Shown here piece by piece: positions 51,744 to 52,050 of a DNA stretch of 64,000 nt. The translations under genes were made by a program, and so were the position numbers. The stretch lies in the IMG/VR virus record IMGVR_UViG_3300042305_001561, positions 895 to 64,894 of that record; one strand, written 5' to 3'. The DNA comes from a virus. Its lineage: Duplodnaviria; Caudoviricetes. The notes beneath the pieces are model-generated. The model worked only from the letters and a program-made list of their open reading frames with translations, ran no database searches and was not told the DNA's origin. Each line of letters opens with the position of its first letter. Position 1 is the stretch's first letter.

Positions 51744-52050
51744 AAAAAGACTTGTCGTTAGTATCGTATGCGACGCCACGAAGGGACTGCCCTAGTTATG
51801 TGTGAAAATATTGGGAGGAATAATGATTACCTCCATTCCAACTCCGATATTTCAGTTATTCAGTCAGATGATACCGTCGCATCATAATGGTTCGCAATGT
51901 CATATGTTATTCTACATACAAACCATACCTCTGGTAGCTTCGGTTGGCCAACCTAGGCTTCAGCATAGTACCTTACTTACTACTCGGAGCAGAAACTTAC
52001 CTATACTCTTCGTATAGATAATGCGTTAGTCCCATTTGATAAGACTTTTT
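51744..52050 (-). ncRNA. unassigned structured RNA B (~307 nt)
   Basis: Closing stem, GGGACU/AGUCCC, CUCCGA/UCGGAG, multiple hairpins; directly 3' of tRNA-Ala. Confidence 0.65.

Follow-up and report, generated by a model that had tools for sequence, protein, structure and literature searches.

A conserved structured RNA in the tRNA arrays of uncultured phages and its likeness to manA

What is encoded directly behind the tRNA-Ala gene of a large, uncultured freshwater phage, at a place where no credible protein-coding frame is found? The question is raised by a stretch of 64 kilobases (kb), here called the window, taken from a 64.9-kb IMG/VR virus record (IMGVR_UViG_3300042305_001561, positions 895 to 64,894; Caudoviricetes) that is rated as about 25% complete. 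An initial annotation, made by a model from the sequence alone, had marked positions 51744-52050 of the window as an unassigned RNA of 307 nucleotides (nt). We find here a folded RNA gene of about 255 nt on the minus strand of 51806-52063, directly behind tRNA-Ala. It belongs to a family, with members in viral and metagenome contigs, that is uncatalogued in Rfam 15 and whose nearest catalogued likeness is the manA RNA (RF01745).

Limits and fold of the RNA

The tRNA-Ala gene (anticodon UGC; 52063-52138) was called by ARAGORN and scores 63.3 bits with the Rfam tRNA model, and its CCA end coincides with the first base of the RNA model. From this point the RNA core extends to 51806. Coordinates here refer to the window and features to its minus strand, unless stated otherwise; the homologues comprise subgroup A, to which the window belongs, subgroup B, and the single loci L056 and L008. 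Two covariance models match the core: R1 with 297.9 bits over model positions 1-257 (258 model-aligned bases), and R2, which derives from subgroup B and L056 only, with 70.3 bits. The minus strand folds with a minimum free energy (MFE) of -88.5 kcal/mol, a z-score of -2.25 relative to shuffles, versus -0.65 for the plus strand; the 66 consensus pairs include 11 G.U pairs in the window copy; and all 17 RNA genes called by ARAGORN in the window (16 tRNAs and a transfer-messenger RNA, tmRNA) likewise lie on the minus strand. The proposal of the initial annotation that tRNA-Ala is directly followed on the minus strand by a structured non-coding RNA with several helices is thus borne out, and the sequence words that it quoted are all present in the window.

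The fold is carried by covariation, which that annotation had named as a check. For eight sequences of subgroup A, aligned with MAFFT and folded with RNAalifold, 66 pairs are predicted, 25 of them with compensatory changes, and subgroup B, folded independently, yields 93 pairs, of which 34 are compensatory. In a 31-sequence alignment made to the model, 94.1% of the pair cells hold standard pairs, versus 37.8-48.0% in slid controls in which the pairing partners were shifted by one to three columns. Changes on both sides are seen in this alignment at 45 of the 66 pairs, and none of 500 shuffles reaches the observed values.

From its 5' end the fold comprises the closing helix P0, P1 with P1a, P2, P3 enclosing P4 to P7, and finally P8. 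P0 is a nested helix in which the bases just before the conserved GUGRC pair with those just after the CCUCC of P8: its 5' strand AUUUUUG (52057-52063) pairs with 51807-51813, in the 3' strand CAAUAUUU (51806-51813) that directly follows P8. Its inner three pairs are formed in 28, 30 and 31 of the 31 sequences, with both-side changes in 2 and 7 sequences, and its bases differ by group, namely UUG/CAA in subgroup A, AAAUAG/CUAUUU in subgroup B, AUCAGGG/CCCUGAU in L056 and UAGUGAG/CUCACUA in L008. RNAalifold independently predicted a P0 of 7 base pairs (bp) on subgroup B, and L008 has a perfect 7-bp P0. P1 (GCG/CGC) and P1a (AGUCUU/GGGACU) together occupy 52023-52054 and correspond to helices 1 and 2 of the model, which are 100% and 99.5% paired with both-side changes at 3 of 3 and 5 of 6 pairs; the internal loop of P1 reads GAAAAA on its 5' side in the window (GAAUAA in most homologues) and UAA on its 3' side. 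P2 (51997-52021) is a hairpin with a variable 10-bp stem, changed on both sides at all 10 pairs and paired in 98% of the cells, beneath a conserved GAAGA loop (52007-52011); compensatory changes in this CUAUAC/GUAUAG hairpin are already visible between the window and the closely related locus L006.

P3 (51836-51994) pairs 51984-51994 with 51836-47 and encloses the central multi-helix domain; the two model helices that make it up, 4 and 5, are 89.5% and 77.3% paired and show both-side changes at 11 of 11 pairs. Within it lie P4 (51962-51981), a hairpin seen in the alignment and its covariation within the conserved GUAAGUAAGGUACUAUGCUG; P5 (51927-51958), a three-part hairpin that includes the conserved GGCCAACCGAAGC and CAGAGGUA (helix 8, 91% paired); P6 (51887-51926), formed by AUGGUUUGUA and UGCGAACCAU (helix 9, 97% paired, both-side changes at 5 of 9 pairs); P7 (51870-51883), formed by GAUGC and GUAUC (helix 10, 99.1% paired, both-side changes at 3 of 5 pairs); and the joiner CUGACUGAAUAACUGAAA (51850-51867), a single-stranded segment that is near-invariant in the eight-sequence alignment. 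P8 (51814-51834) consists of GGAGG, the 11-nt loop UAAUCAUUAUU and CCUCC. Because its stem is invariant it shows no covariation either way, and this invariance is partly by construction since two of the three patterns used in the homologue scans contained the P8 word; in the sequences found with the remaining pattern, P8 varies only in the last two loop bases. The P6 loop is variable except for an AUGA (51900-51903) that keeps a constant spacing to the stem in 30 of the 31 aligned rows; the 31st row is L056, in which AUGA is also present in the MAFFT alignment. This AUGA is complementary to UCAU (51823-51826) in the P8 loop, and from this complementarity, neither side of which varies, we infer a putative tertiary contact between the two loops.

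Five of the seven helices in the initial annotation reappear in this fold: CUCCGA/UCGGAG is P3, CUAUAC/GUAUAG is P2, AUGGUUUGUA/UGCGAACCAU is P6 and AUGAUGC/GUAUCAU is P7, each with covariation, and GGAGG/CCUCC is P8 with its invariant stem. The other two, the long-range helices AAAAAGUCUUAUC/GACAAGUCUUUUU and GGGACU/AGUCCC, were meant to close a single 307-nt RNA at 51744-52050, and with them fall its limits. Complementary words do exist for both (11 of 13 and 6 of 6 pairs by eye), but their 5' strands form the covarying P1a, while the conserved core does not include their 3' partners. The first of these partners is lost in L006, whose tRNA-Ala and RNA copy are together 97.7% identical to the window and whose similarity to it stops at about 51752. 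The 3' trailer that holds these partners (51745-51805) is found in the window's sublineage only and folds weakly, its seven distinct variants giving an alifold energy of -8.3 kcal/mol and no compensatory support. It is absent from the other subgroups, most family members are without it, and in L017 a tRNA-Val separates the core from the trailer. We therefore regard the longer RNA as very improbable. The trailer was also considered as a ribozyme or terminator in its own right and set aside, as it has no Rfam match, no terminator-like site, a weak fold and no covariation.

Coding potential offers a further way of explaining the locus away. The plus strand holds a mechanical open frame of 71 codons (51802-52017), which could be taken for a small protein gene with incidental RNA structure, and the longest open frame is antisense to the RNA in 34 of 35 distinct sequences. 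Substitutions between this frame and seven homologues, however, fall evenly on the codon positions (90, 107 and 88 at positions 1, 2 and 3), and the frame is not judged to be coding because there is no third-position excess. Single-base insertions and deletions between homologues, the 45 compensatory pairs and the placement of all flanking RNA genes on the other strand likewise argue against a protein gene, which is scarcely credible here. The view of the initial annotation that no credible open reading frame (ORF) is present can stand.

Distribution and genomic setting

Six related loci were reached through a neighbour of the RNA, a 74-amino-acid (aa) ORF (51436-51660) that starts 146 nt after it. 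Further members came from pattern scans: the P8 21-mer yielded 14 viral and 41 metagenome stretches; a P5 word gave 14 viral stretches, three of them new; and a gapped P1...P8 pattern gave 61 stretches with 46 new loci, four of which are family members, the other 42 having been rejected as chance matches by R1 search. In all, three pattern scans and one metagenome scan, followed by R1 searches, produced 55 full-length loci with 35 distinct sequences (L008 and L048 are the same contig). Lengths are 254-260 nt in subgroup A, 303-307 nt in subgroup B, 289 nt in L056 and 310 nt in L008. R2 scores 52-70 bits on subgroup A and 56.8 bits on L008, and finds no match in five unrelated loci.

The RNA is an accessory element of phage genomes. 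Neither R1 nor R2 finds a copy in a relative's record of 297 kb that CheckV rates as 100% complete (G001), and three other records carry one copy each; R1 detects no second copy in the window. In L003, L004 and L007 the 74-aa ORF is present and the RNA was not found. In L006 the adjacent 74-aa ORF is only 57% identical to that of the window, next to the nearly identical tRNA-Ala and RNA; the sequence comparison suggests either exchange of a cassette or strong constraint. A blastn search of 51400-52300 against GenBank phages at distant settings matched only the tRNA, and the exact 21-mer had no match in 185,579 species genomes. Because the helicase ORF has only tblastn matches of at most 25.5% identity, the phage appears to have no cultured relative. 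Literature searches found no description of this RNA family.

The family is typically set among tRNA genes. In 38 of 39 distinct contexts the RNA has a same-strand tRNA or tmRNA within 1.5 kb, and in no context is one found on the opposite strand within that distance. The end of a tRNA is -1 to 25 nt from the 5' end of the RNA in 14 of the 39 contexts, the window included, a tRNA begins 2-6 nt past its 3' end in 5, and a tmRNA stands 248-387 nt upstream in 7. What follows the RNA varies from one context to another: tRNA-Pro, Met, Val or Glu, a pistol ribozyme, or ORFs. By blastn, 11 of the 39 contexts have a pistol-like sequence behind the RNA and on its strand, and in five of these it is 3-10 nt away. 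Two are supported by Rfam (L011 9453-9520, 52.1 bits; L009 8700-8759, 38.0 bits; cut-off 34.5) and served as the blastn queries, which added L059, L022, L029, L064, L019, L030, L037, L027 and L031; a sequence in L074 looks pistol-like by eye, is unmatched at an expectation value (E) of at most 1e-3, and is left out of the count. In these phage tRNA arrays the pistol ribozymes thus sit between the RNA and a tRNA-Met that follows it.

Candidate signals for expression lie ahead of the RNA or of the tRNA that it abuts. Sigma-70-like promoters precede the RNA itself in subgroup B and others, and the tRNA-Ala-RNA pair in the window, where a consensus scan picks out TTGACT-16-CATAGT (52161-52188) with 9 of 12 matches, which on its own is no evidence of function. 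The heptamer GTTCTTT precedes the RNA by 10-17 nt in 23 of the 39 contexts, and in 12 of the remaining 16 the RNA abuts a tRNA. In the window this word occurs 37 times versus 14.3 expected, a number reached in none of 100 shuffles, and it is found 6-9 nt upstream of tRNA-Leu (42716-42722), tRNA-Ser (50602-50608), tRNA-Ala (52147-52153) and a second candidate RNA, RNA C (57093-57099), all on the minus strand; the occurrence before tRNA-Ala, as a motif-scan match, is by itself no evidence of function. GTTCTTT could be a leader, a processing signal or a promoter-proximal signal.

This setting bears directly on whether the RNA is a cis-regulatory leader or riboswitch that in response to a ligand controls the gene behind it, in the window the 74-aa ORF. 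Such a role is presumed for manA, whose RNAs are reported to be often located in potential 5' untranslated regions (UTRs) (Weinberg et al. 2010, PMC2864571), and the manA-like scores discussed below, the 146-nt distance to the ORF in the window and the L008 copy, which precedes an ORF by 140 nt and has no nearby tRNA, all speak for it. On the other hand, the tRNA gene that begins 2-6 nt after the RNA in five contexts leaves no room for an expression platform, the downstream element changes between contexts, and the scan found no terminator-like site after the RNA in the window. Furthermore, the 74-aa ORF has a promoter-like site of its own (TTGACA-16-CATTAT, 51709-51736; 10 of 12 matches in the consensus scan), and it occurs without the RNA in three loci. 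A cis-regulatory role is therefore unlikely.

Several other RNA features of these arrays were noted. The phage-encoded tmRNA of the window (35271-35651, 91.1 bits) specifies the tag peptide AKRNLAKTSFLSVSRKSEVAVA; among the matches listed (the best 150 of 184), a tmRNA adjoins the RNA in L009, L011, L015, L019, L022, L023, L027, L029, L031, L037, L065 and L083. In L044, L062, L038 and L046 a conserved segment of about 85 nt after the RNA resembles a degenerate tRNA by eye, with acceptor-like ends and a UCC anticodon-like loop, and has no ARAGORN call. Three tRNA-like Rfam matches in the window (44179-44250, 54130-54203 and 55259-55330, minus strand; 42.2-44.6 bits) also lack an ARAGORN call. 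A related tRNA array in L017 contains a match to the HDV-F-prausnitzii-type ribozyme (8953-9022, 40.3 bits; cut-off 44).

RNA C (56789-57085) had been linked to our RNA in the initial annotation by the recurrence of the hairpin word GGUAAUCA. This recurrence is at the level of chance (two matches versus 2.39 expected, with at least two in 68 of 100 shuffles), and as R1 finds no second copy in the window, RNA C is not retained as a paralogue. It has sub-threshold HDV-like matches at 56785-56858 on the minus strand (drz-agam-1, 27.5 bits, cut-off 37; HDV-F-prausnitzii, 26.1 bits, cut-off 44) and GTTCTTT at 57093-57099, 8 nt upstream; because of these matches and this leader word it may be a separate RNA gene that ends in a ribozyme.

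Among the proteins encoded in the window, an RNase T-like exonuclease (37891-38790, minus) and two RNA ligase-family proteins flank the tRNA island, and to judge from their domains the three form a possible tRNA-repair set. A 213-aa ORF inside the tRNA array (49807-50448, minus) has an N-terminus that resembles GIY-YIG homing endonucleases by eye only; SegB in the tRNA region of phage T4 is a precedent for a homing endonuclease in such a place (PMC2330249). Elsewhere are found a tyrosinase-domain protein (39017-40516, minus; PF00264, 119.9 bits), a UvdE UV endonuclease (33420-34379, minus; 152.3 bits), several glycosyltransferases and an aminotransferase.

Relation to manA and other known RNAs

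In the whole-window scan with Rfam 15 no family reaches its gathering score on the RNA, in agreement with the initial annotation, which had left it unassigned. That annotation had compared its context with the tRNA-linked phage RNAs GOLLD and ROOL, and as to context the comparison is apt. Both are described as structured phage or prophage RNAs of unknown function that are often near tRNA islands, many members of GOLLD being longer than 800 nt (PMC12286853). The present family shares with them the phage origin, the structured fold and the placement in same-strand tRNA arrays, yet it differs in length (about 255 nt), no likeness of sequence or secondary structure to them was seen, and neither GOLLD nor ROOL nor RNase P gives a match at E<=10 in a 901-base scan (51350-52250).

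By context alone the RNA can also be compared with the stable RNA species I and II of phage T4, non-tRNA RNA genes within its tRNA cluster; the RNA likewise lies inside a tRNA cluster, on the strand of the tRNAs. The T4 species are co-processed with the tRNAs, have no known function and are smaller than the RNA described here. No Rfam family for them scored on the RNA.

Near-invariant unpaired bases in a compact fold, and a location among self-cleaving ribozymes and substrates of RNA processing, would also suit a ribozyme that processes itself or acts on neighbouring tRNA or tmRNA precursors. Within 51806-52063, however, no ribozyme family (pistol, HDV-like, hammerhead, twister and others) matches at E<=10, and no cleavage site can be inferred. 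RNase P RNA in particular was rejected, given the negative Rfam scan at the same limit; the P1 word GGAAAAAGUC of the window, which looks like its CR-I element, lacks conservation in the family. Catalysis by the RNA is thus a distinctly improbable explanation.

The nearest catalogued family is instead manA. RF01745 matches the window at 51804-52076 with 33.9 bits (cut-off 55.2; E 6.8e-7 in the 901-base scan), through an alignment with a 90-nt insertion and many non-canonical pairs, and it scores 34.8 bits on L006, 32.5 on L011, 31.0 on L008 and 28.6 on L009. For comparison, the true manA RNA of phage P-SSM2, which lies between regA and purL, scores 181.6 bits, and phage Syn9 gives no match with this model.

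Both kinds of RNA occur in phages, and several architectural features are shared. In each an outer helix closes the whole motif, P0 standing at the position of manA's closing helix in the Rfam consensus. In each the first hairpin begins with GUGRC, and its internal loop is of the GAAUAA type on the 5' side and reads UAA on the 3' side; the GUGRCGGAAUAAG...CUAACGY that is conserved in the present family is the part that cmscan aligns to the first hairpin of manA. The last hairpin has in both a loop of 11-12 nt (UAAU.CA..A type) and directly precedes the 3' closing strand, and 7 of the 11 positions of the P8 loop match the manA consensus by eye. In both, moreover, this terminal loop is complementary over 4-5 bases to the loop of an earlier hairpin (CUGUA/UACAG in the manA of P-SSM2, AUGA/UCAU here). 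The interior differs: manA has a junction of three hairpins and a long hairpin with a UaCUGuA loop, whereas the present family has an extra arm, P2, and a central domain of about 190 nt with five helices. The settings differ as well, tRNA/tmRNA arrays here, with L008 as the exception, and potential 5' UTRs in manA. On balance the comparison of sequence and fold slightly favours a distant common ancestry of the two. manA-II is a different matter, an unrelated candidate riboswitch that has only the name in common, a name that is thereby already taken; in the description of Narunsky et al. (2024, PMC11109978) its 85 examples combine a three-stem junction with two hairpins and precede manA or pflA in Leptotrichia.

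Processing, a possible circular form and biological meaning

Taken together, the best explanation overall is probably that the family represents a stand-alone processed phage RNA with a manA-like architecture, and not a cis-acting riboswitch. The abutment on tRNAs, the promoters and the downstream pistol ribozymes suggest that a discrete RNA is cut out of tRNA-array transcripts. The RNA would be transcribed along with the neighbouring tRNAs from host-type promoters; its 5' end would be released by tRNA 3' maturation, and its 3' end by RNase P where a tRNA follows, while in arrays in which none follows a downstream pistol ribozyme would separate it from the succeeding sequence. P0 would then close the ends and the P6-P8 loop contact would compact the fold, and the RNA may act in trans during infection, on translation or on RNA metabolism.

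A number of observations weigh against this explanation. Each of the processing steps just proposed is deduced from gene order alone. The manA link is weak in that all matches stay below the gathering score of 55.2 bits; part of the score in the window comes from the model's first hairpin being laid on the 3' end of tRNA-Ala; RF01745 has no match at E<=0.05 in L056, L046, L054, L038, L085 and L083; and the manA site of P-SSM2 (L068) is missed both by R1 (filters off, E<=10) and by R2 (E<=1). Because of the sub-threshold scores and this failure of R1 and R2, the RNA is not a member of manA by manA's own criteria. P0, one of the shared features, amounts in the window's subgroup to only three solid base pairs. 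The copy in L008, which lies outside the 39 counted contexts, sits in a 513-nt space between ORFs, a 5'-UTR-like position, and 10.7 kb of sequence there contain no tRNA. Fitting the 31-sequence alignment to the model structure favours that structure, a bias of which the eight-sequence MAFFT result and the independent fold of subgroup B are free; and the P8 word in two of the three scan patterns introduces an ascertainment bias, so that the limits of the family are partly set by construction.

RNA libraries provide a view of the locus beyond genomic contigs. Six RNA-library entries from five studies, labelled as freshwater, riverine or freshwater-sediment metagenomes, contain part of the stretch. 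Contigs from four runs of four studies cover 51842-52043 (with no differences), 51850-52128, 51821-52024 and 51811-52062, the second of them bridging the junction of tRNA-Ala and the RNA, which, like the gene spacing, bears on a release of the RNA from a tRNA-containing precursor. The contigs show presence of the sequence in RNA libraries; they give neither ends nor strand nor level, and carry-over of DNA is possible. In the four runs no contig covers 51742-51809 and little covers the flanks; neither this absence nor contig depth is counted as evidence.

One contig of 302 nt, from run X18 and with a word depth of 72.7, forms a cycle; its sequence lies on 51811-52062. In the sense of the RNA it runs from 52045 to 51811, continues with 26 extra letters and resumes from 52062 to 52022. 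Read by eye, these 26 letters would lengthen P0 into a capped stem of about 17 bp with perfect pairing. The cyclic contig could stem from tandem gene copies in an unsampled relative or from a circular RNA. It thus brings up the idea of a covalently closed, circular mature RNA, or of one produced from tandem units, with P0 juxtaposing the ends for a ligase to seal or the capped P0 stem being processed. Consistent with this idea are the extension of P0 by the extra letters and the two RNA ligase-family proteins of the window (31938-33053, minus, PF09511, 50.1 bits; 57591-58631, minus, PF09414, 81.9 bits, with a PHA02142 OB domain). Against it, the cycle is a single contig in a single run, and a collapsed tandem duplication in the DNA of an unsampled relative would give the same cycle in the assembly graph; the 23-nt palindrome of the contig has no match in IMG/VR viral contigs, neither it nor a tandem copy is present in any of the 55 loci, and the other three RNA contigs are linear pieces. 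We consider a circular or tandem-derived mature form unlikely.

Just as tentative is a broader proposal, drawn from the same comparisons, in which this family and manA would together make up one superfamily of autonomous, end-closed phage RNA particles, none of them riboswitches. In at least some phages such RNAs might be circular or made in tandem with a capped P0 stem and be sealed by the phage RNA ligases beside the tRNA island, their P6 and P8 loops engaging in tertiary or intermolecular contacts; the family would then be a small cousin of the ornate tRNA-island RNAs.

To return to the stand-alone processed RNA, its recognition extends the RNA islands related to translation in large uncultured phages, which hold tRNAs, tmRNA, self-cleaving ribozymes and RNA ligases, by a well-supported structured class of medium size. 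The cyclic RNA-library contig, together with a helix that closes the ends, is a concrete lead in the search for a phage RNA that is circular or permuted in nature. Finally, manA, an orphan that has been a riboswitch candidate since 2010, gains a probable relative whose setting disfavours cis regulation; because this relative sits in tRNA arrays and not in a cis-regulatory setting, the status of manA as a riboswitch becomes directly testable.

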